Assembly: GCF_055900595.2 (NCBI RefSeq)
Contig: NZ_CM148325.1
Direction: 5' to 3' (one strand)
Length of the DNA: 64,000 bases
Shown here: one piece after another, positions 6,708 to 44,917 of the stretch
Numbering within the stretch: the first letter of the stretch is position 1
How the letters are laid out: each line of letters opens with the position of its first letter
The notes under the pieces: generated by a model
Seen by the model: the letters and a program-made list of their open reading frames with translations, nothing else
Told to the model about the DNA's origin: nothing
Database searches by the model: none
Position numbers and translations under genes: made by a program

Positions 6708-8174
6708 ATGCTACGTATCGCTAAAGAAGCTCTGACGTTTGACGACGTTCTCCTCGTTCCTGCACATTCTACCGTTCTGCCGAATACCGCTGACCTCAGC
6801 ACCCAGCTGACAAAAACTATTCGTCTGAATATCCCTATGCTCTCCGCAGCAATGGATACCGTAACGGAAGCGCGCCTGGCTATCGCCCTGGCTCAGGAAG
6901 GCGGTATCGGCTTTATCCACAAAAACATGTCCATTGAACGCCAGGCTGAAGAAGTTCGCCGCGTGAAAAAACACGAATCTGGCGTGGTAACCGATCCGCA
7001 GACTGTTCTGCCAACCACGACGCTGCGCGAAGTGAAAGAGCTGACCGAGCGTAACGGTTTTGCAGGCTATCCGGTTGTGACCGAAGAAAACGAACTGGTC
7101 GGCATTATCACCGGTCGTGACGTGCGTTTTGTTACCGATCTGAACCAGCCGGTTAGCGTTTACATGACGCCGAAAGAGCGTCTGGTAACCGTGCGTGAAG
7201 GCGAAGCCCGTGAAGTGGTGCTGGCAAAAATGCACGAAAAACGCGTTGAAAAAGCGCTGGTGGTTGATGATGAATTCCACCTGATCGGCATGATCACTGT
7301 GAAGGACTTCCAGAAAGCGGAACGTAAACCGAACGCCTGTAAAGACGAACAAGGCCGTCTGCGTGTAGGTGCAGCGGTTGGCGCAGGTGCGGGTAACGAA
7401 GAGCGTGTTGATGCGCTGGTTGCCGCAGGCGTTGACGTTCTGCTGATCGACTCCTCTCACGGTCACTCTGAAGGCGTTCTGCAGCGTATCCGTGAAACTC
7501 GCGCTAAATATCCTGACCTGCAAATCATCGGCGGCAACGTGGCAACAGCTGCAGGTGCCCGCGCGCTGGCAGAAGCCGGTTGCAGTGCCGTTAAAGTGGG
7601 TATCGGCCCAGGTTCTATTTGTACTACCCGCATTGTTACTGGCGTCGGTGTACCGCAGATCACTGCCGTTGCTGACGCAGTAGAAGCCCTGGAAGGCACC
7701 GGGATTCCGGTTATCGCTGACGGTGGTATTCGTTTCTCTGGCGATATCGCGAAAGCTATCGCTGCTGGTGCAAGCGCGGTGATGGTAGGCTCCATGCTGG
7801 CAGGTACGGAAGAATCCCCGGGTGAAATCGAACTCTACCAGGGCCGTTCTTACAAGTCTTACCGTGGGATGGGCTCTCTGGGCGCGATGTCCAAAGGTTC
7901 TTCTGACCGTTACTTCCAGAGCGACAACGCTGCCGACAAACTGGTGCCGGAAGGTATCGAAGGTCGCGTAGCCTATAAAGGTCGCCTGAAAGAGATCATT
8001 CACCAGCAGATGGGCGGCCTGCGCTCCTGTATGGGCCTGACCGGCTGTGGTACTATCGACGAACTGCGTACTAAAGCGGAGTTTGTACGTATCAGCGGTG
8101 CGGGCATTCAGGAAAGCCACGTTCACGACGTGACCATTACTAAAGAGTCCCCGAACTACCGTCTGGGCTCCTGA
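6708..8174 (+). CDS. guaB: IMP dehydrogenase
   Basis: Conserved N-terminus [25 protein letters not shown] begins at the in-frame ATG at 6708 (ORF track extends to 6639); CBS and IMPDH catalytic regions present ([11 protein letters not shown]). Confidence 0.95.
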
Positions 8175-8242: not shown

Positions 8243-9820
8243 ATGACGGAAAACATTCATAAGCATCGCATCCTCATTCTGGACTTCGGTTCTCAGTACA
8301 CCCAACTGGTTGCGCGCCGCGTGCGTGAACTGGGTGTTTACTGCGAACTGTGGGCGTGGGATGTGACAGAAGCACAAATTCGTGACTTCAATCCAAGCGG
8401 CATTATTCTTTCCGGCGGCCCGGAAAGCACCACCGAAGAAAACAGCCCGCGTGCGCCGCAGTATGTCTTTGAAGCAGGCGTACCGGTATTCGGCGTTTGC
8501 TATGGTATGCAGACCATGGCAATGCAGTTGGGTGGTCATGTTGAAGCCTCTAACGAACGTGAATTTGGCTATGCGCAGGTTGAAGTCGTAAACGACAGCG
8601 CACTGGTTCGCGGTATCGAAGATGCGCTGACAGCAGACGGTAAACCTCTGCTCGATGTCTGGATGAGCCATGGCGATAAAGTTACCGCTATCCCGTCCGA
8701 CTTCATCACCGTAGCCAGCACCGAAAGCTGCCCGTTCGCCATCATGGCAAATGAAGAAAAACGCTTCTATGGCGTACAGTTCCACCCGGAAGTGACTCAT
8801 ACCCGCCAGGGGATGCGCATGCTGGAGCGTTTTGTGCGTGATATCTGCCAGTGTGAAGCCCTGTGGACGCCAGCGAAAATTATCGACGATGCAGTAGCCC
8901 GTATCCGCGAGCAGGTAGGCGACGATAAAGTGATCCTCGGCCTCTCTGGTGGCGTGGATTCCTCCGTGACTGCAATGCTGCTGCACCGCGCAATCGGCAA
9001 AAACCTGACTTGCGTATTCGTTGACAACGGCCTGCTGCGTCTCAACGAAGCAGAGCAGGTTCTGGATATGTTTGGCGATCACTTTGGTCTGAACATTGTT
9101 CACGTTCCGGCAGAAGATCGCTTCTTGTCAGCGCTGGCTGGTGAAAACGATCCGGAAGCAAAACGTAAAATCATCGGTCGCGTTTTCGTTGAAGTATTCG
9201 ATGAAGAAGCGCTGAAACTGGAAGATGTGAAGTGGCTGGCGCAGGGTACTATCTACCCTGATGTTATCGAATCTGCCGCGTCTGCAACCGGTAAAGCTCA
9301 CGTCATCAAATCTCACCATAACGTGGGCGGCCTGCCGAAAGAGATGAAGATGGGCCTGGTTGAACCGCTGAAAGAGCTGTTCAAAGACGAAGTGCGTAAA
9401 ATTGGTCTGGAGCTGGGCCTGCCGTACGACATGCTGTACCGTCACCCGTTCCCGGGACCAGGCCTTGGCGTTCGTGTGCTGGGCGAAGTGAAGAAAGAGT
9501 ACTGCGACCTGCTGCGCCGTGCTGATGCCATCTTCATTGAAGAACTGCGTAAAGCGGACCTGTACGACAAAGTTAGCCAGGCGTTTACCGTGTTCCTGCC
9601 GGTACGTTCTGTTGGCGTAATGGGCGATGGTCGTAAATACGACTGGGTTGTGTCTCTGCGTGCCGTCGAAACCATCGACTTTATGACCGCACACTGGGCG
9701 CATCTGCCGTACGATTTCCTTGGTCGCGTTTCCAACCGCATTATCAATGAAGTGAACGGTATTTCCCGCGTGGTGTATGACATCAGCGGCAAGCCACCGG
9801 CGACTATTGAGTGGGAATGA
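8243..9820 (+). CDS. guaA: GMP synthase (glutamine-hydrolysing)
   Basis: 525-aa [43 protein letters not shown] ... PPATIEWE; class I glutamine amidotransferase plus ATP-pyrophosphatase regions. Confidence 0.95.
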
Positions 9821-9822
9821 TT
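9809..9822. repeat. attL core (direct repeat GAGTGGGAATGATT overlapping the guaA stop codon)
   Basis: Exact 14-bp copy also at 44813-44826; the left copy supplies the last guaA codons and TGA stop. Confidence 0.55.
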
Positions 9823-9866: not shown

Positions 9867-9895
9867 ACCGCCTTGATTTACAGGCGGTTTTTTTA
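9867..9895 (+). terminator. Rho-independent terminator downstream of guaA (prophage-supplied)
   Basis: Hairpin accgcc-ttgatttac-aggcggt followed by a run of Ts. Confidence 0.6.
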
Positions 9896-9938: not shown

Positions 9939-10026
9939 GCGGTAAATTTGACGGTATAAGAAATTTTTAGTCAGTGTTACACTCCATTTTACCGTCAGGT
10001 TTTAGCCAGCGGTGACGGTAAAATTT
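9939..10026. promoter_or_regulatory. Cluster of GACGGTA(A/T)A motifs: putative integrase arm-type binding sites
   Basis: gcggtaaa 9939-9946, gacggtata 9950-9958, inverted tttaccgtc 9988-9996, gacggtaaa 10014-10022, immediately upstream of int; the same motif occurs twice in the right arm (44730-44750). Confidence 0.4.
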
Positions 10027-10030
10027 CACA

Positions 10031-11245
10031 ATGGAGAGTGACCCGATGCTGACCGATACCAAACTGAAAAACCTCAAAGCGCGGGAAAAACTTTATAAAG
10101 TTGCAGACCGTGATGGGCTGTATGTAACCGTATCTCCCAAGGGATTGGTGACGTTTCGCTATGACTATCGAATCAATGGTCGTCGTGAAACGTTAACTAT
10201 TGGTCGCTATGGTGACGGTATTTCTCTGGCGCAGGCGCGCGAAAAATTAGTGGAAGCCAAAAAACGCGTAAATGCAGGAATATCGCCCGCTGGAGAGAAG
10301 CGTGACGGTAAAACAAAGCGAAAAGAAGAAAAGACACTCCACGATTTTACCGTCAGCTACATGAAACACACCCGGCTGGCGGACAGCACAAGGGCGATGA
10401 AGCAAAGCATTATCGACAGAGACATCACGCCAGTATGGGGGCGCAAGCTGCTGTCAGAGATAACCCCCTCTCTCCTACGTGAGTATTGCGACAAGATAAA
10501 AGCGCGTGGTGCGCCAGCGACGGCGATTCAGGTTCGCAATATCGTTAGTGCGGTATTTAAGTTCGCCGCGCTTCACGGCGACTATTACCCCAATCCTGCC
10601 GAAGAGGTTTTACCGGCTTCAATTGCGACATTCGAAGCGCGCGACAGGGCGCTCAAGCCAGAGGAGATAGGCTGGTTTTTCAATCAGCTTGAACAAACGG
10701 GTACATTACCCACCATCAAGCTGGCCATTAAATTGGTTTTATTAACGATGGTACGTAAAAGTGAACTGCTGAACGCTCCGTGGGGTGAGGTTAATTTTAA
10801 TGCCTGCCTTTGGACGATTGACGCCAGCCGGATGAAGGGATCACGGGATCATAATGTTTATCTGTCCCGGCAGGCACAGGACATTCTGATTGCCCTGAAA
10901 ATGTGCGCAGGAAGCAGTGATTGGGTTTTGCCTTCATGCAATCAGTCGTCGCATAAGACCATGTCGGCGGCGACCTTAAACCGGGTCATTAATCTTACGG
11001 TTAAGCAGGCGCAGGAACGGGGGATCAGGCTGGCGTCGTTTTCCGTTCACGATATGCGCCGAACGGCATCGACGTTATTGCATGAGGCGGGGTTTAATTC
11101 CGACTGGATAGAAAAATGCCTCGCGCACGAGGAAAGAAGCGTCAGAGCCGTTTATAACAAAGCGGAATACGCAGAGCAGCGCCGTGATATGTTGCAGCAG
11201 TGGGCGGATATGGTTGATGGGTGGATCAAGCAATACCGCCCGTAA
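10031..11245 (+). CDS. int: Tyrosine recombinase, P4-type phage integrase
   Basis: N-terminal arm-binding region DGLYVTVSPKGLVTFRYDYRINGRRETLTIGRYG and C-terminal catalytic HDMRRT ... AVYNKAEY (HxxR ... Y) typical of P4/CP4-57 integrases; true start may be the Met at about 10046. Confidence 0.9.
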   Translation: MESDPMLTDTKLKNLKAREKLYKVADRDGLYVTVSPKGLVTFRYDYRINGRRETLTIGRYGDGISLAQAREKLVEAKKRVNAGISPAGEKRDGKTKRKEEKTLHDFTVSYMKHTRLADSTRAMKQSIIDRDITPVWGRKLLSEITPSLLREYCDKIKARGAPATAIQVRNIVSAVFKFAALHGDYYPNPAEEVLPASIATFEARDRALKPEEIGWFFNQLEQTGTLPTIKLAIKLVLLTMVRKSELLNAPWGEVNFNACLWTIDASRMKGSRDHNVYLSRQAQDILIALKMCAGSSDWVLPSCNQSSHKTMSAATLNRVINLTVKQAQERGIRLASFSVHDMRRTASTLLHEAGFNSDWIEKCLAHEERSVRAVYNKAEYAEQRRDMLQQWADMVDGWIKQYRP

Positions 11246-11248
11246 GTA

Positions 11249-11503
11249 CTATGCGGGGATCTTGGTACCAGAGCGCTTTGGGACTTTGGCCAGATTTTTC
11301 TGTACCGCGTTATCAATATGGTGATGGTTATTTTCCTGCCGTGCTTTGAGCCAGCGTTCCACTTCCTCTTTGTCCCACGCGACGGCGCGCTTCGTTAGCG
11401 CAAAACGTTTGGGAAACAGGCCTTTTTGCTCCAACGCATAAATCGTACTTTCAGAGAGTGGCACCATCTGTAAAAGCACGTTTTTTCTAATGGCAATTTT
11501 CAT
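11249..11503 (-). CDS. alpA: AlpA/Vis-family excisionase-type transcriptional regulator
   Basis: Motif LSESTIYALEQKGLFPKRFALTKRAVAWDKEEVERWL matches the AlpA family; adjacent to int. Confidence 0.7.
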   Translation of the reverse strand: MKIAIRKNVLLQMVPLSESTIYALEQKGLFPKRFALTKRAVAWDKEEVERWLKARQENNHHHIDNAVQKNLAKVPKRSGTKIPA

Positions 11504-12314
11504 TGTTTATTCCTTTAATCCAAAGGCACTCAGTTCTGATAACAGATCCTTTTTTACCAGCAGCGGCAGATTGCTTTGTCTCTTTACGCCAGCCGGTTAG
11601 CAAATCGTTATACATTTCGGTGTCGTAGCCGCTGATAACCACGCTTCCTTGTAACCGGGTGACGGTCTCCAGTAAGCGCAGGTGGGCACCATCGTCCATT
11701 TCGTGGCGATAATATTTGTTAGTCAGATTACGGGTGCTATGAACATACGGCGGATCGACAAAATGCAGCGTGTCGGCGGCGTCATGATCCAGAATACACT
11801 GGATGGCATCGCGGTTTTCCACCAGAACCCCTTCAAAACGCTGACCAACGGCGGCCAGATTATCGGGCATACGGCTCCAGATGTGTTGGGCCGTTCCACT
11901 GGCGCGTTTAGTGTCCAGCCGAAAGCCGGTAGTGCCTTTAGTTGCCCCGGCAGAACCGAAGCCCATCGTGGCGCGAATCACTAAACGCCTTGCCTGTTCA
12001 ACAGAATTTTTCCCATAGCGATAGGCCGAAATAAACTCGGTGCGGGAATAGGGTGTCAGGCTGCAGGCTTCAACCAGTCTTTCGCGCAGTTGTGGGGTAC
12101 GAAGAACGGCGAACAGGTTAACGACGTCGCCATCCAGATCGTTGTAAACCTCGGCGTAGCTACGTGGTTTTCTGAGCAGTACGCTGGCTGCACCGCCGAA
12201 GGGTTCCACATAGCATCTGTGGGCCGGAAAGTGGCTAATGATCCACGGAGCTAGTCGCCACTTGCCGCCGTGGTAGCGGATTGCAGGGTGCTTAATCATC
12301 CAGTTTTTCTCCAC
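11487..12314 (-). CDS. DNA adenine (N6) methyltransferase, Dam family (copy 1)
   Basis: SAM-binding motif YVEPFGGAASVLL and catalytic DPPY (FVDPPYVHSTRN). Confidence 0.8.
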   Translation of the reverse strand: MEKNWMIKHPAIRYHGGKWRLAPWIISHFPAHRCYVEPFGGAASVLLRKPRSYAEVYNDLDGDVVNLFAVLRTPQLRERLVEACSLTPYSRTEFISAYRYGKNSVEQARRLVIRATMGFGSAGATKGTTGFRLDTKRASGTAQHIWSRMPDNLAAVGQRFEGVLVENRDAIQCILDHDAADTLHFVDPPYVHSTRNLTNKYYRHEMDDGAHLRLLETVTRLQGSVVISGYDTEMYNDLLTGWRKETKQSAAAGKKGSVIRTECLWIKGINNENCH

Positions 12315-12891
12315 GCCGTTCTACGTTCAGGTGTCGCCACTGCACCGCAATCCGTTTCATCACCGCATTCCCCTCTGGGATCACCTCCTGCGGCTCCTTC
12401 ATCAACATGACCCGCCCCCGAATAACGATCAGCGCTTGTTCCAGCAGGCCATAGTCCAGATAACAGAGATCGGGAATATCCAGTTGCCACACATAGCCAT
12501 TCCATGCTGAAAGTAGCACTTGCGCGGCGGCGCGTCCGCCGCTGGTTTCTGTGAGCGCGATTTTGGCAAGTGTATTGACGGCTGCGCCATATTCCTCTGG
12601 CGTGACGCGGAGTTTCTGCTGGCTGTTATCTTCTTTTGCCAGCGTTAATAATCCAATCGGGTGTAATACGCCCAGCTCTTCCATCTTTTCTTTCAATGTT
12701 GCAGCTGTATTCCATCCAATTCTGAATTTGCGCTGCAGGCGGCTGATACTGATAATGCCTTCCGCCTCGGCCAGTTCGACCGCTTTGGGATAGAGTTCAT
12801 TGAGCCGATATTCGTAATCAGCGAAGGGCGCACCGCTATTCTCTGGCAGGCCAGAGAGTGTTTGTGAATTATTTCCAGAGGATTTCATCAT
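12292..12891 (-). CDS. Hypothetical protein with FtsK-gamma-like winged helix
   Basis: Segment IISISRLQRKFRIGWNTAATLKEKMEELGVL resembles the FtsK gamma-domain consensus (S.S.lQR..rIGynRAarl.e.mE..G); remainder unrecognised. Confidence 0.45.
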   Translation of the reverse strand: MMKSSGNNSQTLSGLPENSGAPFADYEYRLNELYPKAVELAEAEGIISISRLQRKFRIGWNTAATLKEKMEELGVLHPIGLLTLAKEDNSQQKLRVTPEEYGAAVNTLAKIALTETSGGRAAAQVLLSAWNGYVWQLDIPDLCYLDYGLLEQALIVIRGRVMLMKEPQEVIPEGNAVMKRIAVQWRHLNVERRGEKLDD

Positions 12892-12901
12892 AATTTCCTT
12901 T

Positions 12902-15559
12902 TTAACGTTGAAAAACCCAACACTTCACCGTCGCCGGGCGGCGCGGTGCGGCTGGGTAACGGCGGTTAAATTCAGCGTTGATGCCGCTGTTAACCGTTCT
13001 GACTTCAATAAACTTGTGGGTACGGCTGGTTTTTAGCACTCGCTTCAAATCGCTGATCGGCGGGATCTGCTGGCGGCGCTCGGTAGCCAGTTGAATAAAG
13101 TGGTTAAGGTTAACGGCGATAAGCTGTTCATCGCGCGAGTGGTTGAGCTGTGGTTCGTCGTCGCCATCGAGGAAGTCGAAAATATCCCAGAACTCCTGCA
13201 CCAGAGGATGGTCGGCGCTGATGGCCTGTTGGCGCTCCAGACTGAGGCGGATAAACATTTCTCTGGTCGCCTGTAGCTGCTCTTCCGTGACCGGAATAAC
13301 CAGCGCCAGCGCGTCGAGCAGCGCCATAAGCTGGGCGTGGTTTTTAATGATGCGGATATGGCGAATATCTGGGTGGGAGTGAAGTTGCTGCTCGTATAGC
13401 GGGATCTGACGGTTAACGCACTCCAGCACGGCCTGTTCCGCCAGCGCTGCCTTCAGCATAAAGCCGGAAAGCTGTTCTACCGGCAGGCGTTCGAGCTGCT
13501 CGGCAGCGACCTTGGTCTGAGTATTCTGGCCGCTGCGGTCGGTGTACAGGTGAATAATACGTTCCAGCACCGGGTTAGAGGCGCTAACATCGGCGTTTTG
13601 CGCAATCACAATCGCGCCCCGGAACGGCGGTTCATAGGTCTCGTTGCCGCTGTTACGCAGACCGCGAGAACGCACCGACCGCCCGTTATAGGCGGTTTTC
13701 AGCTCTTCCCAATCAAAGCCACGCTGCTTTGCCCCCTCCTGATTACGGTCACCCTCGATCAGCACCACCGGCATATTTGCTACCTGCGCAAAGTTGCGCG
13801 CGCGGGCGGCCAGCGTTGATTTAGACGGATCGAAACCTTCATAGTCGCGTCGGCCCAACAGTTTCCAGAGGAACTCTATCAGCGTGGTTTTACCGCTGCC
13901 GGGTTCGCCAACGATTTCCAGAAATGGAAAGCTCTTGTGCTTGTCGCGGATCTGTTCGGCAAACATCGTCCCAAACCAGTACGCCAGCGCCACAAACCCC
14001 TTTGCGCCAAACGCCTGCCAGAGTAGCTGGGGCCACTGGCTGTCCATCTGTTTTAAATTGTCGTTCAGCGTCAGGCTGACCGACTGGTTCAGGCTTTTAA
14101 GGCTAAGTTTGCCCATGTCGAAGAAGTCTTCTTCGTTGAGTGTGTACAGCCGACCATCGCGAACGGCCAGATCGTTGAACACGTAAGCGCGGTATTCTTT
14201 GCTGTAGCCGATAAAATCAGTGGTCTGGACAGTTTTGATTTTGGGAAGCTGCTTGAGCAGCAACTTATCTAACTGCTGACTGGTGCCGGTGAAGATGCCG
14301 CCCTGCGCGATATGCAGCAGGCGCTTTTTGAATTCTGAGCCGCTGGAAAGTTGGGAGCCGGTGAAGGTGTTTTTTATCGGTGGAGTGTCGTCGGGGAAGT
14401 TAATGCGAAAGTAATACCAGCTTTCGTCGGTAATGGTGTTGGCCTGATAGTAGAGGGCGGTCGGGTAGCAGTTGGCTATCTCAACAACGGCGGCTGACTC
14501 CTGTAGCGCTTTATGTTTGGCTTCTTCTTCGTCCAGCTCCTCTTTGCCGTTATACATCACGTTATCAAAGGCACGCATATAACGGTCAATATCCAGCTTG
14601 AACCAGTACAGGCGGCTGTCGAACTCGAAGTGAAACTCTTTGCGTTCGGTACGCTCATGCATCAGTAATGCTTTGGCATTCGGATTGGGAGCGATCAACA
14701 GTGAACCGTAGTAACGATATTTTTTAATCAGATCCGGGTTTAGCCGATCGCGCTGGTGCAAATCGTTCCAGTCCAGCTTGGTGCGGGAATAGGGCGTTTG
14801 TGCGGCGGTGGAAAGCCAGCCGTCGTCGCGGCTGCGTTTTACCCAGCGGCGGGTGTAATTCATGCCCGCTTTGTCGTTATCCAGCGCCCAGACCAGTAAA
14901 GGACGCTTTTTATCCACGAACAGCGCGGCCAGTTGGCTTAACGCCTGCGCCGGATAGTTGTTACAGGTCATCAGGGAAACGGCGGCAATGCCGTGGTGGT
15001 GCAGGGCGATAGCGTCAAAAATGCCCTCAACCAGCCAGATCTCCTGCTGTTCTTCCAGCTTAAGCGTTGGCAATTGCCACCATAGCCCGCTGTAAGCGCC
15101 GTGAAAATTGGCTTTGCGATCGCCGAAACGCTGTGGGCGGTCAACGATCCGCTCCCACCACACGCCGTCAGCCAGCGGGAAACGCACAGTGGCCGAGCCG
15201 AGATCGCGCCGTGCGTCATAGTAGTTCTCTTGAGCGTAACAGTTACGGAGCAGCGAAAGGTCAAAGCCGCGCATCTCGCGCAGGTAGGCATCGGCGGCGG
15301 CCTGTGGGTTTTCCGGGGTTGGGGGATATCTGTCTGACCAGCTTTCAAATAGATCCGGGTACACCTCTTTGATATGGATTTCGGCATTGCATTTATTCAG
15401 GCGACCGCAGCGCAGTACCCACGGGCTGATGGCGTAGGTGTACAGCTCTTTTTTCTGGCAGTCCGGGCAGACGCCCTGCCGCAGCCAGTCGCCCTGTTCT
15501 TTAAAGGAAAAATCGGCTAGCAGTCGCCGCGTAATTTCCTGATGAAGTTGTGGTTGCAT
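12902..15559 (-). CDS. Replicative primase-helicase (P4 alpha / HP1 Rep-like)
   Basis: N-terminal zinc-binding motif CPDCQKK ... CGRLNKC, TOPRIM-like EGIFDAIALHHHG and LDNDKAG (DxD), and Walker A GEPGSGKTTL. Confidence 0.75.
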   Translation of the reverse strand: MQPQLHQEITRRLLADFSFKEQGDWLRQGVCPDCQKKELYTYAISPWVLRCGRLNKCNAEIHIKEVYPDLFESWSDRYPPTPENPQAAADAYLREMRGFDLSLLRNCYAQENYYDARRDLGSATVRFPLADGVWWERIVDRPQRFGDRKANFHGAYSGLWWQLPTLKLEEQQEIWLVEGIFDAIALHHHGIAAVSLMTCNNYPAQALSQLAALFVDKKRPLLVWALDNDKAGMNYTRRWVKRSRDDGWLSTAAQTPYSRTKLDWNDLHQRDRLNPDLIKKYRYYGSLLIAPNPNAKALLMHERTERKEFHFEFDSRLYWFKLDIDRYMRAFDNVMYNGKEELDEEEAKHKALQESAAVVEIANCYPTALYYQANTITDESWYYFRINFPDDTPPIKNTFTGSQLSSGSEFKKRLLHIAQGGIFTGTSQQLDKLLLKQLPKIKTVQTTDFIGYSKEYRAYVFNDLAVRDGRLYTLNEEDFFDMGKLSLKSLNQSVSLTLNDNLKQMDSQWPQLLWQAFGAKGFVALAYWFGTMFAEQIRDKHKSFPFLEIVGEPGSGKTTLIEFLWKLLGRRDYEGFDPSKSTLAARARNFAQVANMPVVLIEGDRNQEGAKQRGFDWEELKTAYNGRSVRSRGLRNSGNETYEPPFRGAIVIAQNADVSASNPVLERIIHLYTDRSGQNTQTKVAAEQLERLPVEQLSGFMLKAALAEQAVLECVNRQIPLYEQQLHSHPDIRHIRIIKNHAQLMALLDALALVIPVTEEQLQATREMFIRLSLERQQAISADHPLVQEFWDIFDFLDGDDEPQLNHSRDEQLIAVNLNHFIQLATERRQQIPPISDLKRVLKTSRTHKFIEVRTVNSGINAEFNRRYPAAPRRPATVKCWVFQR

Positions 15560-17167: not shown

Positions 17168-18316
17168 ATGTCTGATATTTCATTAGGGTGCGTGGTTGTT
17201 CATAGGTTGATAAAAGAGCAACATAAAGATTTCGATCACTCAAAACCATATAGTCGCCGTGATACGGTTCTTGACCGAAATAATGAAATCGTAATTAAAC
17301 TAGTGTCCAGTATAGCCGCATTGTATGGTAAAAAATCTAATAGCTCGCATTATGGTATATTTAATTTAGATGAAACACGCAGGGGGCCTTTTCCAGCGGA
17401 ATTTGATAAATATCGGAATGATACATCCAAGAAGTTAGACGATGAATTGTTTATAGGATTATCAAAAAATGTTATGCATCAGTTATATATTGAGGCAAAG
17501 GATCGACCTGCTGCATCAGGAGGATTACTTCTTTTTGCTGATTATATCAGTAAATCCGTGCGTTACTTTCTTATTGCAATGATTAAGCAAAAGGAAGGTA
17601 TAGTTATTAGTGATAAATTAGAGCCAAAGGAGTTAGAGCATCTTGATCTGGCAAAACTAAACCAGGCGGCACGAATAAACTATGATTTGTATGATAAATA
17701 TATTTCCGCTGATGAGAATGAAAGACAGGATGTTAATTATTTAAGTTTTGTTAGTCCCAGTTCTAACCAGACAACTTCAGGGTATTTCATTACTGCCTTA
17801 GGTTGTGATAAAGGTAATACATCAACTAAAGCTACGAGTAATTTAATTAATGAATCTTTTAACTTCTTCAGAAATCATCAAGAATTAAAGGATAATGCCC
17901 GTAAATTTAAAAATGAAATTATTGAGTATTTATTCGATTGTTCTGAAAATAACATTTCAGCTAAGCTCTCTGTTGTTAGTGAGATGGCGGCGAAGCATAT
18001 GGTTAATTTAGAAGATGACATTAAAGATAAATTGTCAGAAGAATTATATGCTCATTTGAATAGTGAAAGTATTCGTGTGCCTGTGGAATTTAGGGTAAGC
18101 AAATCAGTAGTTAAGAAAAACAGAAATATTAAATATACAAGTGATAATGTTAATTTTGAGTTTAAATCTAGTTTACTAGGCAATACTCTTGATAATGAGA
18201 TATGCTATAATAAGAAAACTGGACATTTAACTTTTACTCGGATTACTCCTGAGAAAAAAAGTGAAATAGCTCAATTGCTTGATGAGTTAATAAAAGAAAG
18301 AAATAGCGAAAAATAA
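17168..18316 (+). CDS. NdpA/YejK-like nucleoid-associated-protein family member (cassette gene 2)
   Basis: N-terminal VVVHRLIKEQH and SGGLLLFADYISKSVRYFLIAMIK align by eye with YejK IALHQLIKRDE and [24 protein letters not shown] (sequence recalled from memory); further colinear similarity towards the C-terminus. Confidence 0.5.
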   Translation: MSDISLGCVVVHRLIKEQHKDFDHSKPYSRRDTVLDRNNEIVIKLVSSIAALYGKKSNSSHYGIFNLDETRRGPFPAEFDKYRNDTSKKLDDELFIGLSKNVMHQLYIEAKDRPAASGGLLLFADYISKSVRYFLIAMIKQKEGIVISDKLEPKELEHLDLAKLNQAARINYDLYDKYISADENERQDVNYLSFVSPSSNQTTSGYFITALGCDKGNTSTKATSNLINESFNFFRNHQELKDNARKFKNEIIEYLFDCSENNISAKLSVVSEMAAKHMVNLEDDIKDKLSEELYAHLNSESIRVPVEFRVSKSVVKKNRNIKYTSDNVNFEFKSSLLGNTLDNEICYNKKTGHLTFTRITPEKKSEIAQLLDELIKERNSEK

Positions 18317-18318
18317 GG

Positions 18319-18957
18319 TTGCTTAATATGTCATGTTTTGAAACGGTTGTTGAGCTTTTCAGATATGTAGGGCGTCCTAAATTTGATGCTATTAATAATC
18401 GTTTTTCAGCAACTATTTCTTATGATGCTCATATATATGAACTCTTAGTTTCTTTGCAACCTCATACAGCGTGGGGAGAAATTGAAGAGATTGTCATTGA
18501 TGATGTGGATATAGATGTTGATGATAGCCTTCCCGCTAAAGGAACATCAATAACACTGACAATCTCTATATCAACTGGAGCTAGTGAGTCATTTTTTATC
18601 GATATTAAAGATCTAATTCAAAAGTCTCCGATGTTAAATAGAGGTATTTTAAGAAAGTCTTTTTACTTGGTTGAGGAAGATTTTTATTTTAATGAAGGAA
18701 TGGTTGAGGGATTAGCAAAAATACCAGAACTATCTGTTTTAAAGAATCTTTGTGATTTTATTTTATGTCTATCAAAAGTTGCACACTACAGCAATAGTAA
18801 AAGTGATGATGTATGCCATAAGTTAGTTTTCTTGAAAAATACTAATGCTAAGTCATTACCTTTAATTATTGAAACTAATGTTGATTATTCACTTCTTTTA
18901 ACAGGTATTAAGGATTTAAAAATCATCGAATCTTTTTCTGATGAAAAAAAGCTATAA
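18319..18957 (+). CDS. Hypothetical protein (cassette gene 3)
   Basis: 212-aa ORF starting 2 bp after gene 2; acidic stretch IDDVDIDVDD; no recognisable motif. Confidence 0.5.
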   Translation: MLNMSCFETVVELFRYVGRPKFDAINNRFSATISYDAHIYELLVSLQPHTAWGEIEEIVIDDVDIDVDDSLPAKGTSITLTISISTGASESFFIDIKDLIQKSPMLNRGILRKSFYLVEEDFYFNEGMVEGLAKIPELSVLKNLCDFILCLSKVAHYSNSKSDDVCHKLVFLKNTNAKSLPLIIETNVDYSLLLTGIKDLKIIESFSDEKKL

Positions 18958-19001
18958 CGGATGATAATTATTTTGAGCGAAAAGGGATTTTCATTAATAC
19001 G

Positions 19002-19583
19002 GTGGTCGATTTTCTTGAATCAATCGATGTAAAGAAACAGTTTCATTTTTTATTCTGTGAGTGGGATGAATTTCTAAAACTATACCATAATAACCTCGGT
19101 GTATATCTTAGTGGTTTTTCATTTCATAAAGTAAGAAAGGAAGTGGCAGAGGCAGAAGCTAATTTAGCTGAGCGTTTTTCAAAAATAATGTCAGACATGA
19201 TAGCTAAGCTTTTAGGTATTCCTGTTTCTTTGGTTGCTACTTTTGGCATGATAAAATTAAATACCCTGCCGGAAATGTTAGTGGTTTTTTTAGGTGTATT
19301 GCTCACGTCGATAATTATGTTTTTTATTGTAAGAAGTCAATACACACAGTTTAGGATGATTTGTGATGCTAAAGATATTATATTTTCCCCATTAGTGAAA
19401 AAATCTGTAGGTTATACAGAAGATTTGAAAAAATTAGTATGCAATGCAAAGGATAATTTAGACAAAAATCAGGTCATGTTAAATCGTTACCTTCTTTTCT
19501 TTCAATGCTTATGCTGGATTCCGACAGCCTTAGGTGGTGGAATGATCTTAATGGCTATTATGGTTCATTTAGGATTACTATAA
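19002..19583 (+). CDS. Predicted membrane protein with two hydrophobic helices (cassette gene 4), putative effector
   Basis: Hydrophobic segments LLGIPVSLVATFGMI ... LVVFLGVLLTSIIMFFIV and LLFFQCLCWIPTALGGGMILMAIMVHLGL; 3' end overlaps the convergent gpD stop by 6 nt. Confidence 0.5.
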   Translation: MVDFLESIDVKKQFHFLFCEWDEFLKLYHNNLGVYLSGFSFHKVRKEVAEAEANLAERFSKIMSDMIAKLLGIPVSLVATFGMIKLNTLPEMLVVFLGVLLTSIIMFFIVRSQYTQFRMICDAKDIIFSPLVKKSVGYTEDLKKLVCNAKDNLDKNQVMLNRYLLFFQCLCWIPTALGGGMILMAIMVHLGLL

Positions 19584-28122: not shown

Positions 28123-29780
28123 GCCAGCCTCACGATATAGTTGAAAGCGATATTTTTAACGGTGTTTTCGGTGTTCCCGGCGGCATTCACCGTAATAGTG
28201 TGGCTGTGGGAACCCAAGGCGATAGCGTGGTTATGCGCGCCGATAGTCAGCGAATGGGTATGAGCGCCGATGGCTACTGTGTGAGTATGGACACCGTCTG
28301 TACTGGTTCTGAATTTGTAGTTATCCCAGTCTGTGTCTGCAGACCCCTGATTATTACGGGTACTGTCGAAGTAACCGTGACGTCCACCGCTGGCTTCACC
28401 CCATCCGCTGTCGTGGTTGTGAGCACCGGCTGACGCTGTTGATTTTGTCCCGTAGTCAAACGCGCTGGTATTTTTAGTACCCAAATCGGTGGAACTGGCA
28501 GTTTTAGTGCCTAAATCTGTGTTAGTGGCGCTGGCTGTGTGACTATGAGATTTAACGCCATCCTGTTCCTGAGACAGTATCGAGCGTCCGCTGGCGGGTT
28601 TCCCCTTGATTGTCCAGCCGCGCATATCCGGGATTACCCCAGAGGGGTAAGCGATTGCCAGTTTAGGGTAGGCGGTTTTATTGAAGGACTGACCGACCAT
28701 CAGGGCGTAGCCGCTGGGGATTGCATCGGATGACCACGGTATCGGCGTGCCGACCGGACAGGTTTCCGCCGCCAGCGCTTTGTCTACTGCCGCTTTCACC
28801 GCCTTGGGCGTGGCGGCCAGTGTTTCGCTGGTGCTGTCGATGGCGCTACTAAGCTGGACAATCCCTTTACGCGCCGTGGTGGCATCCTGCGCGGTATATT
28901 TGCCATTAGCCATATCGTAGGCCGCTTTCACCGCCTTGGGCGTGGCGGCCAGTGTTTCGCTGGTGCTGTCGATGGCGCTACTAAGCTGGACAATCCCTTT
29001 ACGCGCCGTGGTGGCATCCTGAGCGGTATATTTGCCATTAGCCATATCGTAGGCCGCTTTCACCGCCTTGGGCGTGGCGGCCAGCGTTTCGCTGATACTG
29101 TCGATGGAGCTACTAAGCTGGACAATCCCTTTACGTGAGGTGGTGGCATCCAGTGCGGTATATTTTCCATTAGCCAGATCGTAGGCTGCTTTCACTGCTT
29201 TGGGCGTGGCGGCCAGTGTTTCGCTGATGCTGTTGGTCGCACTGCTTAATTGAGTAAAACCTTTGGCAGTTAACGTGGCGTCAGGATGGTTACGGGACTG
29301 CACGTGGCACGTCAGGCTTTCATCCACATACTGTCTTGTTGCCAGCACCACGGCAGGGTCGATTTTCAGCTCCACGTTTTCCGTATGGGAGACAATCAGC
29401 ACCATGCGGATAATCTGCGTGCGGCCCGAACCTTCGATTAACTGCGGCTTGTAGGTTGGCGGGCAGTTGCCGACGGCAATCAGCCGGTCGTGCTCGTCGT
29501 ACAGGCCAATTTCTCTGATCCACCATCCGCCTACATCCTCCGGTAGTACCTGTTCGGCAATAATCTGGTTGGGGTTGTTAGGGTCAATACTGAGCGTATT
29601 CAGCGGCGCACGTCGGCGTTCGTTGATTAACCGGGTTTGGCCAGTCTCCGGTGTTGGCAGGTTACCGTTTCCGTCGCCCACGGCCATTTGCGTCAGATGA
29701 AGAGGTGAACCCTGTGCGGTGGCGGTCGCCAGCGCGGATTCGCCGGTAGTGGTTAATAGCGTGAAATAGGTAGCGCTCAT
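28119..29780 (-). CDS. H: Tail fibre protein (P2 gpH-like)
   Basis: Conserved N-terminus [51 protein letters not shown]; variable C-terminal half with 44-aa tandem repeats and His-rich tip. Confidence 0.8.
28780..29290. repeat. About 3.8 tandem copies of a 132-bp (44-aa) repeat within tail fibre gene H
   Basis: atccctttac recurs at 28861, 28993 and 29125; protein repeat [44 protein letters not shown]. Confidence 0.8.
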
Positions 29781-35052: not shown

Positions 35053-35344
35053 GGCGTGGCTCCTTCGGGTGGTGACGTAAGGGTTTAATCAGGCTGGCGA
35101 CGTTGCCGCGTGCGGCAGTCAGGCAAATCAGCAGCACGATGTTGATGGCGGTTTCGGCGATAAACACGTAGCGGTACAGGCTGAAACAAATCAGTACCGC
35201 CACTGATGCGGTGCAGCACATCAGCAGCCACGCCAGCCAGCTATACAGCGGGCGATAGGTAGTACCGTGAACGCGGCGATAGAGGAACAGACGGATGGTA
35301 ATCAGCAGGCAAATAATGGCGTTAAGGCTCAGGATTAGTTTCAT
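35030..35344 (-). CDS. Small membrane protein, holin/antiholin-like
   Basis: 104 aa with three hydrophobic segments; sits between holin and endolysin. Confidence 0.45.
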   Translation of the reverse strand: MKLILSLNAIICLLITIRLFLYRRVHGTTYRPLYSWLAWLLMCCTASVAVLICFSLYRYVFIAETAINIVLLICLTAARGNVASLIKPLRHHPKEPRHDSYTHS

Positions 35345-35730
35345 TTGCGTCCCCTTAAAAAGTCGAGCAGTTGACCGGGGTTATCCAGTTGTCGGATGGC
35401 CCATAGCAGCGCCTTGACGGTAAGCGCCGATGAGAGCAGCGCCCCGATACCGGGGGAGACTTTTTCCGTCAGATGTTGCGGCAGATATCCGGCGACCAGT
35501 GCAGTGAACAGGTCGGCGGTCAGCAGGCCGATCACAAACGCCACGCAGAAGAAAATGATGCGCAGGAACAGGCCGATCTCTTTTTGCGAAATCACCAGCA
35601 GCAGCGCGCCACACAATGCGCCGAGCACCACCGGAGCCTGTAGCGTCGGGAACAGCGTGGCAATGGAGAATGCGCTTACGGAAGCGGCGACGACGGTGCC
35701 GGTTACGGGTTCGTTCATAGTCAGTCCCAC
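35341..35730 (-). CDS. Holin (P2 gpY-like)
   Basis: 129-aa protein with multiple hydrophobic helices and a charged C-terminus, located after X. Confidence 0.55.
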   Translation of the reverse strand: MGLTMNEPVTGTVVAASVSAFSIATLFPTLQAPVVLGALCGALLLVISQKEIGLFLRIIFFCVAFVIGLLTADLFTALVAGYLPQHLTEKVSPGIGALLSSALTVKALLWAIRQLDNPGQLLDFLRGRK

Positions 35731-42999: not shown

Positions 43000-43976
43000 A
43001 TAACTCAATGGCTTTCACCTTCGGTGAACCTGAAGCCCTGCTGGACAGGCGGGAAATACTGAACTATCTGGAGTGCGTGGACTTTGGCAAATGGTATGCG
43101 CCGCCGGTGGATTTTAATTCGCTGGCGCTGTCGTTCCGCGCTTCGGCGCATCATACCAGCCCGATCTGCGTGAAGCGCAACGTGCTGGTTGGTACCTTCA
43201 TACCTCATCCGTTGTTGACCCGGCAGGCGTTCAGCCGCCTTGCGCTGGACTATCTGGTATTCGGCAATGCCTATCTGGAGCGGCAGGATAACCGGCTGGG
43301 CCAGCCGTTAACGCTGGTGCCTGCGCTGGCGAAGTATGTCCGGCGCGGCAAGGCGCTGGACAGCTATTTCTTTGTTCAGCCCGGTAAAGTGGATCATGAG
43401 TTTGCGTCGGGCAGTATCGGCCACCTGCTGGAGCCGGATATCAATCAGGAAATCTACGGCCTGTCGGAATACCTCTCTGCGCTGAACGCGGCATGGCTGG
43501 ATAACTCCGCCACGCTGTTTCGCCGTCGTTACTACAAGAACGGCAGTCATGCCGGTTTCATCCTCTACCTGAGCGACCCGGCCCACAACGAGGCGGATAT
43601 TGGGGCGTTACAGGAAGCGCTAGCGAACAGCCGTGGCCCCGGCAACTTCCGCAATCTGCTGATGTATCTGCCGAACGGCAAGCCAGACAGCGTAAAGGTT
43701 ATCCCGATTGGCGAGGTGGCGGCGAAAGATAACTTCTCCGATATCAAGAGTGTCAGCCGTGACGACCAGTTAGCTGCGCACCGGGTACCACCTGCGCTCA
43801 TGGGCGTGGTACCGAGTAACGCCGGTGGCTTTGGTGATGCCATCAAAGCGGCGAAGGTATTCAACTGCAATGAGATCGAGCCGCTACAGGAACGGTTCAA
43901 GGAGCTGAACGACTGGCTGGGGCTGGAGGTTATTCGCTTCAAAAAGTACCGCCTTGCCGACGACGATTCAGAGTAA
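42996..43976 (+). CDS. Q: Portal protein Q
   Basis: 326-aa ORF overlapping the P stop by 4 nt; P2 P-Q operon arrangement. Confidence 0.85.
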   Translation: MNNSMAFTFGEPEALLDRREILNYLECVDFGKWYAPPVDFNSLALSFRASAHHTSPICVKRNVLVGTFIPHPLLTRQAFSRLALDYLVFGNAYLERQDNRLGQPLTLVPALAKYVRRGKALDSYFFVQPGKVDHEFASGSIGHLLEPDINQEIYGLSEYLSALNAAWLDNSATLFRRRYYKNGSHAGFILYLSDPAHNEADIGALQEALANSRGPGNFRNLLMYLPNGKPDSVKVIPIGEVAAKDNFSDIKSVSRDDQLAAHRVPPALMGVVPSNAGGFGDAIKAAKVFNCNEIEPLQERFKELNDWLGLEVIRFKKYRLADDDSE

Positions 43977-44035: not shown

Positions 44036-44295
44036 GGGCTTTTTTACGCCTTCTCACCGCCAGAATCCCCGGTCAGCACCGCCAGCGCGCGGTTGTGACC
44101 CCGCCACGCCTGCGCAGTAAATAGATCGCTTTTTTTGCACTGGTGCGTAAGCGTCGGAGCGGGCCATAACGGGAGGGCGTGGTCGGGTTGCAGTTGCAGC
44201 AGAATCATGCGGATTTATACGCCCTGTGTATGCGCCAGAGACGATCGGGAGGGCAATGCCACGATCCTTTCGGTATTTTTGGATCGCCTGTCGGG

Positions 44296-44580
44296 AAAAG
44301 GTAACCTCAGTAATTAGCAGTAAAAATAATGCTTATTCTATTGTTTATAAAAGAGAAATTTGGTTACCCCTAAAAGGTAATCTGAGGTAACCCAAAAGGT
44401 AACCTGTTTTATATTTTCATATAAATCATGATGTTACAAATTAGAAGACATCACTATTATAAAAGGTAACCTGATTACGCTTTGGTTACCAAAAGATTAC
44501 CTTTCTCTGTTTTTGAAAAATCCTTTTTATTCATTAAGTTATTTTGATTTTTCGTTGCAGGTTACTAAGGTTACCTTTTT
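44296..44580. repeat. Iteron-like array of about 9 copies of AAAAGGTAACC (both orientations)
   Basis: Copies at about 44296, 44362, 44373, 44385, 44395, 44461, 44484, 44491 and 44569, in an AT-rich non-coding region between the cos-proximal end and attR. Confidence 0.5.
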
Positions 44581-44728
44581 CCGAAGTCCCCACGGACTTT
44601 GGTATATATAGATAGGTTAAAAAGTAGCCGTTATGTTTGCCAGCTATTTACTTCCCATTCTTCCACTGGCCAGCATGTTAATATGCCCGGTAATGATAAC
44701 TAGTTGCCATTGGGTTACTTTCTTCTGT

Positions 44729-44755
44729 GGACGGTAAAACTGACGGTAAATTGGG
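44729..44755. promoter_or_regulatory. Tandem GACGGTAAA motifs: putative integrase arm-type sites (right arm)
   Basis: gacggtaaa at 44730-44738 and 44742-44750, the same motif as beside int at the left end. Confidence 0.4.
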
Positions 44756-44812
44756 TTGTGGGTCTCGATTTAGATTAGTAAAATCAAGTGATTAAGTCGA
44801 CTGTAGATAATC

Positions 44813-44826
44813 GAGTGGGAATGATT
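44813..44826. repeat. attR core (direct repeat GAGTGGGAATGATT)
   Basis: Exact copy of 9809-9822; followed by what looks like the displaced native guaA terminator. Confidence 0.55.
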
Positions 44827-44852
44827 TGATCCCTGCACTATGAATTAGCAAA

Positions 44853-44879
44853 ACCCTCTGTTACTACAGAGGGTTTTTT
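44853..44879. terminator. Bidirectional rho-independent terminator (displaced native guaA terminator, also serving yfgI)
   Basis: accctctg-ttactac-agagggt hairpin with flanking T/A runs, between attR and the 3' end of yfgI. Confidence 0.5.
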
Positions 44880-44917
44880 ATACTCACGAATCATAGGATT
44901 GAAGTTACTGACATCGC

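Follow-up and report, generated by a model that had tools for sequence, protein, structure and literature searches.

The window, by which we mean the whole 64,000-nucleotide stretch of DNA analysed here, contains a P2/phiCTX-like prophage of ∼35 kb integrated in the 3' end of guaA. The host DNA around it is E. coli chromosome, with a pdeF gene 99.9% identical to that of many strains and, to the right of attR, ordinary yfgI-side DNA that is present in 5368 of 5426 genomes. The prophage element itself occurs in only three of the 5426 complete E. coli genomes, at one place in each and with 96-98% identity. From left to right, attL is followed by the integrase gene int (10031-11245, + strand), genes for an AlpA-like excisionase and a Dam-like methylase, a 199-aa ORF, the gene for an 885-aa primase-helicase on the - strand, and ogr with cargo genes. 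These are followed by P2-type tail, lysis and head genes, the last of which encode gpM, N and O (- strand) and gpP and Q (+ strand, with the end of Q at 43976). The right end consists of a terminator, cos, a repeat array, two GACGGTAAA repeats and attR (Table 1).

Several features of the integrated element lie outside the array. On integration the last codons and terminator of guaA are replaced, and a near-identical 3' end is supplied by the phage (9806-9900 / 44784-44880). A phage-borne hairpin terminator is found at ∼9868-9895, while the original guaA terminator stays at 44855-44880 beside attR. Escherichia phage TL-2011b probably uses the same guaA site, since it has a match of ∼95 bp to the attR flank of the window. 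The methylase gene (11487-12314), which lies between the excisionase and primase genes, belongs to the Dam family of adenine methylases. The 199-aa ORF (12292-12891), downstream of the primase gene, encodes an FtsK-gamma-like winged-helix N-terminus fused to a DUF7673-type domain; its homolog in the related L725 prophage has 125 aa and no FtsK-gamma-like N-terminus, and the L725 methylase gene is located elsewhere. The cargo genes at 17168-19583 resemble the two-gene "DS1" anti-phage pair, in that one product matches NF053868, a YejK-like nucleoid-associated anti-phage protein, below cutoff and the other matches the partner NF053869 weakly, and L725 carries genes for a nucleoid-associated protein and a GTP pyrophosphokinase at the same spot. 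In the tail region, three overlapping 212-nt units with 132-nt spacing and 87-98% identity (28789-29264) presumably form a repetitive tail-fibre segment.

The array is a short block in which the motif GGTWACC is strongly concentrated, with seven exact copies in 296 bp (44290-44585) versus 10 in the other 63.7 kb of the window (Poisson P ∼1e-13). Exact copies of the longer motif AAAAGGTAACC occur four times, at 44296, 44394 and 44461 on the + strand and at 44569-44579 on the - strand, and a fifth copy at 44372 has one mismatch. Degenerate copies are GATTACC (44495), GGTAATC (44376), GGTTACT (44560), GTTAC (44433) and GTAAT (44311), and when these are counted the A-tract+GGTAAC copies number 10-12, in both orientations. 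The "about nine" repeats given for 44296-44580 in the preliminary description are thus a fair count, and far above chance. Its placing of the repeats in AT-rich, non-coding DNA between cos/Q and attR also agrees with the GC content (26-38%, versus 52-64% in the flanks), the cos-like end and the attR core, and no ORF is annotated in this region of a near-identical E. coli prophage. Two details of that description need correction: the motif, there called a GGTAACC palindrome, is not a true palindrome but GGTNACC with each copy oriented by its A-tract, and the spacing, there called irregular, is not random, since neighbouring copies follow one another at 9-14 bp and distant phages keep the overall layout. 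The distinction drawn there between the array motif and a core-proximal motif holds; the latter is GACGGTAAA, which is separate from the array and present on both att arms.

The limits of the array are better set at 44291-44584 than at 44296-44580, as the two halves of an inverted repeat, TCGGGAAAAGGTAACCT (44291-44307) and AGGTTACCTTTTTCCGA (44568-44584), form its ends. As ssDNA it folds far better than shuffled sequences (z = -6.2), and this strong fold stems largely from the inverted iterons themselves. The iterons flank AT-rich spacers of 26-30% GC, as expected of an iteron-type origin. The IHF-like site in the first long spacer has one mismatch to the IHF consensus, and relatives carry exact sites at the homologous position; the GTTAC that overlaps it (44433-44437) reads GTTACC in three related E. 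coli prophages. No second iteron-like cluster is found elsewhere in the prophage, and there is no DnaA box in or beside the array, the sole near-match lying at 44802, beside the att core. Rfam, promoter and terminator scans return nothing in the array, and neither an sRNA nor a strong promoter is indicated there.

Table 1. Features of the prophage discussed in the text (window coordinates)
Feature	Position	Strand	Description
attL core	9806-9822		ATTGAGTGGGAATGATT; 3' end of guaA, match to attR core
Primase-helicase, proposed initiator	12902-15559	-	885 aa; Zn ribbon, Toprim, P-loop helicase, C-terminal helical/winged domain
cos cohesive end	44093-44111	-	GGCGTGGCGGGGTCACAAC; assigned by analogy with phiCTX, Smp131 and P2 ends
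Whole iteron element, proposed ori	44291-44584	.	294 bp, 26-38% GC; top k-mer cluster of the prophage (de novo clustering); position-by-position alignment with 7 other phages
Left terminal inverted repeat	44291-44315	+	TCGGGAAAA cap, GGTAACC 44300-44306, degenerate GTAAT 44311-44315; pairs with 44560-44584 in ssDNA fold
Central-left iteron cluster	44362-44404	.	GGTTACC 44362 (-), AAAAGGTAATC 44372 (+), GGTAACC 44386 (+), AAAAGGTAACC 44394 (+); pitch 10-14 bp
AT-rich spacer, candidate unwinding region	44405-44460	.	IHF-like AATCATGATGTTA 44424-44436, overlapping GTTAC 44433-44437
Central-right iteron cluster	44461-44505	.	AAAAGGTAACC 44461 (+), GGTTACC 44484 (-), GATTACCTTT 44495 (-)
Second long AT-rich spacer	44506-44559	.	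Sequence composition
Right terminal inverted repeat	44560-44584	-	GGTTACT, GGTTACC, TTTTTCCGA cap
Two direct GACGGTAAA repeats	44730-44750	+	Starts 44730 and 44742; P arm
attR core	44810-44826	+	ATCGAGTGGGAATGATT; 17-bp core, matches attL

Apart from three near-identical prophages, DNA BLAST of the array region against phage and E. coli collections retrieves nothing more than a short match at cos, and DNA homology alone is therefore uninformative. The four E. coli copies of the array are 98% identical, with 10 substitutions in the array, and are too alike for selection on the iterons to be shown from them. Each phage genome was examined by an unbiased scan for locally clustered k-mers, which is validated by phage P4, where the annotated crr and ori iterons are the top clusters. 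An AGGTAA/GGTAAY array is the top cluster in the window prophage, phiCTX, Smp131, RSY1, the Halomonas phage 4908 and the IMG/VR contigs L013, L033 and L069. The motif search in related elements that had been proposed as a check thus yields arrays of the same layout in phiCTX, Smp131, RSY1, a Halomonas phage and many IMG/VR contigs, and an exact search for the two-terminus pattern adds 18 more viral contigs. Every examined phage that has the primase family of the window, and whose sequence reaches the array, carries one array of this kind, and the arrays are now known from phages of E. coli, Pseudomonas, Stenotrophomonas, Ralstonia and Halomonas, and from metagenomes.

The arrays share a common plan. 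The left end often begins with a G-run, followed by TCGGAAAA(A) and two tandem cores 9 bp apart (N3-4 between them), and this left terminus of TCGGAAAA(A), core, N3-4 and core is kept in all relatives. The middle consists of AT-rich spacers, central cores in mixed orientation, and further spacers and cores. The right end has two tandem inverted cores and a TTTTTCCGA / TTTTCCGA cap, often followed by a C-run. The caps (GGAAAA+core ... core+TTTTCC) and the copies in the window are positionally homologous with those of the phiCTX, RSY1 and Smp131 arrays, and in nine phages one terminal pair is separated from the other by a span of 261-277 bp (276 bp in the window). In an alignment of eight arrays, covering five bacterial genera and metagenomes, 13 consensus core positions line up; the cores are 85% conserved versus 55% for the rest, and invariant columns make up 28 of the 73 core columns versus 18 of 253 elsewhere (Fisher p = 8e-10). 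The spacers repeatedly carry matches to the IHF consensus at corresponding positions in the relatives, and many of these matches are exact.

The same frame also houses other cores. GGTTACA or GTTAC is found in the contigs L035, L036, L039, L041 and L052, and CGTCACA/CATCACA in Escherichia phage ESSI2_ev239 (ESSI2). In Pseudomonas phage phi3, 16-17 copies of CCGGAACA in both orientations (7402-7718) lie directly after the primase gene; this array has the terminal-pair layout of the others but a span of 315 bp, and is probably the origin of phi3.

The phiCTX counterpart of the window array was already annotated. The GenBank record NC_003278 marks a "region containing R3 repeats" with two IHF sites at 35100-35390, between attP and cosR. 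The array that aligns with that of the window occupies 35107-35385 and consists of AAGGTAAT/ATTACCTT copies in both orientations. The R3 annotation reportedly stems from an analysis of the attP-cos-ctx region in 1993. No function for the R3 repeats is given in the GenBank record, and none was found in the openly accessible literature that was searched; the functional assignment made below may be new, or may already have been suggested in the original phiCTX papers. The phiCTX copy is ∼274-290 bp long and lies ∼170 bp from cos. Both elements have AT-rich spacers with IHF or IHF-like sites, lie between attP and cos, and accompany primases that are 48% identical, but the core is GGTAAC(C) in the window and GGTAAT in phiCTX. 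The two phages also differ in integrase, att core (guaA for the window, tRNA-Ser for phiCTX), arm repeats and int orientation. If an R3-type element is defined as an AT-rich non-coding block of ∼270-290 bp with at least 10 (A)AGGTAAY copies in both orientations, the window array falls within the definition, and judged by sequence and layout it belongs to the phiCTX R3 element family.

The proposed initiator matches phrog_1139 over its full length, and Pfam identifies Toprim_2 and P-loop domains. Identities of 45-58% link it to the primases of phiCTX (orf37, 48% over the full length), RSY1, Smp131, the Halomonas phage and ESSI2 (53% overall), with 48-58% for phiCTX and RSY1, and four cysteines near the N-terminus are invariant. 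By hhalign, its Toprim region is homologous to the P4 alpha protein (95.6% probability), with no homology found beyond that region, and a profile search of the PDB gives matches only in the Toprim and P-loop regions. The C-terminal 225 residues were modelled with AF2 from a 49-sequence alignment (pLDDT 88.6). The model ends in a helix-strand-helix-helix-strand-helix-strand unit, and its longest structural matches, of modest similarity, are the SCCmec Cch helicase (5dgk) and the SaPI initiator-helicase Rep (8tch). This is suggestive, to a modest degree, of a self-loading, origin-recognising helicase. A search for the primase among plasmids returns circularised phiCTX-like genomes or prophages and no phage-free replicon. 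The FtsK-gamma-like domain of the neighbouring 199-aa ORF was considered as an iteron binder and rejected, as L725 has the same array and a homolog without the domain.

The type of array core is linked to the primase. Within the pairs L035/L039 and L041/L036 the primases are 89-92% identical and the cores are of the same GTTAC(A) type, while gpM is 40-43%, gpP 47-48% and gpQ 48-51% identical. In these comparisons of sequence, core type follows the primase lineage while terminase and portal proteins diverge. More distant primases are accompanied by other cores in the shared frame, namely CGTCACA in ESSI2 and CCGGAACA in phi3, whose primase is 34% identical. The array has no fixed neighbour: it lies beside attP and cos in the window and phiCTX, and beside the primase gene in contigs of the L035 type. 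In L035, L036 and L039 it starts ∼190-390 bp after the primase gene (∼75-390 bp after the stop codon when phi3 is included), in L041 it lies ∼1.1 kb after the gene, behind a 278-aa ORF, and in L052 ∼0.8 kb downstream. An array downstream of the primase gene would form a classic initiator-plus-origin module. The iteron sequence thus appears to covary with its cognate initiator and not with unrelated neighbouring functions.

We conclude that the array is probably the vegetative replication origin of the prophage, of the iteron type, and that it is used by the prophage's own primase-helicase. It is assigned to this protein because it follows the primase family and not att, cos or any fixed neighbour. 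The preliminary description had offered replication-origin iterons, small-terminase sites near cos and arm-type or accessory sites of attP as possible functions, and the comparisons argue for the first. IHF-like sites at conserved spacer positions, where IHF sites are annotated in phiCTX, speak in the same direction. Against this assignment, ESSI2 has a different core, yet its primase is as much as 53% identical to that of the window, and residues by which the core classes differ show no more than a weak enrichment toward the C-terminus (4 of 11 within residues 801-850). The main reservation is the nearly constant distance to cos in most relatives, discussed below.

In the mechanism that we infer, the prophage would first be excised and circularised, and the primase-helicase would then bind the ∼11 A-tract+GGTAAC iterons, of which the two tandem copies at each end point inward and the copies in the middle have mixed orientation. 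IHF would bend the AT-rich spacers, and the resulting nucleoprotein complex would melt spacers of 26-30% GC. The helicase domain may then load itself in both directions and the Toprim domain lay primers, with theta replication carried out by the host polymerase. In the integrated state, the proposed origin lies at the attR end, beside cos and host DNA, and the gene for the proposed initiator at the attL end.

Satellite phage P4 offers a parallel in layout. Its ori and crr contain short iterons of the 8-bp class in both orientations with a pitch of ∼9-11 bp over 250-300 bp, crr lies next to attP arm repeats, and the initiator, as in the window, is a fused Toprim primase and helicase. The P4 iterons (type I, TGTTCACC), which are bound by the alpha primase-helicase, are unrelated in sequence to those of the window. 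In addition, P4 needs two separate sites, ori and crr, whereas the window prophage has one array, and crr consists of two 120-bp direct repeats and is not a dyad-symmetric element. In SaPIs, iteron sets flank an AT-rich stretch just downstream of the initiator gene, which resembles the arrangement in L035 and phi3, and SaPI Rep and SCCmec Cch appear structurally closest to the modelled C-terminal domain of the window protein. SaPIs and SCCmec differ in being Gram-positive elements with separate primase and helicase genes and no sequence-level homology to the window protein.

The array could instead be a platform for another phage or host protein, serving as a centromere-like or plasmid-maintenance site, as a transcriptional silencer or insulator at the genome end, or as a replication enhancer like P4 crr and not as the start site itself. 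With repeats in both orientations around IHF sites, the array is reminiscent of P1 parS; crr also satisfies the terminal-pair signature used for the arrays, and phiCTX-like genomes occur as circular "plasmid" records. Such a role is nevertheless unlikely: no partition genes are conserved among the array-bearing phages, there is no second iteron cluster to serve as the true ori, and among conserved large DNA-handling proteins the primase-helicase alone has a lineage that agrees with the core type.

A role in packaging has to be weighed given the position of the array relative to cos. The cos sequences of Smp131 (PMC3931495) and AP3 (PMC5247547) have been published. The distance between array and cos is ∼170-220 bp in the window (∼185 bp), phiCTX (∼170 bp), Smp131, RSY1, Halomonas 4908, L013, L033, L069 and several of the pattern hits, and is nearly constant at 180-220 bp in most relatives (at least 12). 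ESSI2, phi3, Mae-JY29 and L083 are left out of these distances because cos could not be located in them. The constant distance could reflect a packaging-linked role rather than plain synteny, and the array might then be an accessory site like lambda cosB, at which gpM and IHF position the terminase at the nearby cos; the IHF-like sites would fit, as lambda cosB combines R sites with the IHF site I1. We consider this quite unlikely, and the small-terminase option of the preliminary description is disfavoured with it. In L035, L036, L039 and L041 the array and cos are separated by 2.4-3.2 kb, with cargo genes in between (a 916-aa ORF in L035), and in L105 the distance is 1.2 kb. No array is found in P2, 186 or AP3, which have homologous terminases and P2-type cos but other replication proteins; P2 and 186 replicate via an A-type nickase with an internal ori. 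Burkholderia phage AP3 combines a phiCTX-like int-attP-cos layout and a near-identical cos with an unrelated primase, and its gpM (44% identical to that of the window) is as close as the gpM of array-bearing phages. Conversely, the array type is unchanged where gpM is only 40% identical. The P2-family cos flank (TGCATAAA ... GTGCAnAAAAACCG ... GGCGnGGCGGGG) is a separate block that stays with cos and not with the array, and it is also found beside cos in P2 and AP3. The arrays thus show neither the obligatory adjacency to cos nor the presence alongside homologous terminase and cos that mark cosB-like sites.

An attP function is very unlikely. In this reading the repeats would be distal arm-type or accessory sites, occupied by Int, IHF or the AlpA-like excisionase so as to assemble the intasome or to regulate int, and it can draw on the distance of 225-520 bp to the attR core, on the IHF-like sites, and on the fact that the array adjoins attP in the window, phiCTX and RSY1. 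The array is, however, common to phages with unrelated integrases, att cores and arm repeats, the latter being GTTCCCA (R1) and AAGCCTGCCGTC (R2) in phiCTX and AATTTTACCGG in Smp131; int orientation also differs among the array-bearing phages. In the window, the probable arm-type Int sites are instead the GACGGTAAA repeats, which occur on the P arm and, near int, at 9950, 9988 (- strand) and 10014, and hence on both arms, whereas the array lies on one side of the core only. Cargo genes separate attP from the array in Smp131 (three genes) and ESSI2, the P2-type int-C-cox block of L035 is >5 kb from the array, and AP3 has the int-attP-cos layout without any array. Covariation with integrase or excisionase and an arm position near the core, as expected of attP arm sites, are not seen. 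Lambda cosB and lambda-type attP arms resemble the array in having repeated protein sites amid IHF sites near cos or att, but the adjacency and the covariation with terminase or integrase that define them were looked for in the arrays and not found.

That the array is a selfish palindromic MITE-like element inserted into phage genomes, as its terminal inverted repeats of 23-34 bp, ssDNA fold z-scores of -6.2 and -11.3 and variable position among genomes might suggest, is scarcely credible given exactly one copy per phage with none elsewhere in the window (and one place in each of the three of 5426 E. coli genomes), the homologous positions of the internal cores and the purifying selection on them in phages of distant hosts, and the match between cores and primase lineage.

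If the array is indeed the origin, it marks where replication starts in a branch of P2-like phages that is widespread but has received little study. To this branch belong the toxin-converting phiCTX, Ralstonia phages of the RSY1/RSA1 type, Stenotrophomonas phage Smp131 and rare E. coli prophages, in all of which a primase-helicase has taken the place of the A nickase of P2. The repeat block annotated since 1993 with no function given would then be accounted for, and a simple sequence signature would be available for annotating such origins. A broader proposal, which we regard as possible though short of probable, is that the arrays represent an uncharacterised modular class of origins for the self-loading Toprim primase-helicases of phiCTX-like Peduoviridae. 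These would be built on a fixed dyad-symmetric scaffold of ∼270 bp that is capped invariantly by TCGGAAAA/TTTTCCGA, is bent by IHF at two places and has 13 slots for iterons. Only the 5-7 bp core (GGTAAC, GGTAAT, GGTTACA or CGTCACA) would be swapped, giving mutually orthogonal replicons; the usual placement ∼185 bp from cos might also couple initiation to packaging. Naturally orthogonal initiator/iteron pairs of this kind would be candidate replicon parts.

Some minor observations concern the individual phage records. The ESSI2_ev239 record (L004, NC_049392.1) starts inside coding-like sequence and may be incomplete, and its end at ∼29150-29203 is sequencing-adapter contamination, consisting of a Nextera adapter (CTGTCTCTTATACACATCT...ATCTCGTATGCCGTCTTCTGCTTG) and then poly-A. 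In Smp131 (L005, 27700-28091), the similarity of the annotated primase ORF breaks off at the C-terminus, but tblastn follows it further in a second segment, which points to a frameshift or a sequencing error close to the 3' end of the gene. In AP3 (L095, 34419-34646), a small cluster of 4-5 GGGCAAA copies comes just after the gene for the unrelated CHC2/Toprim_3 primase and falls within an ORF labelled "baseplate J family"; it is a possible origin of the AP3 replication module.
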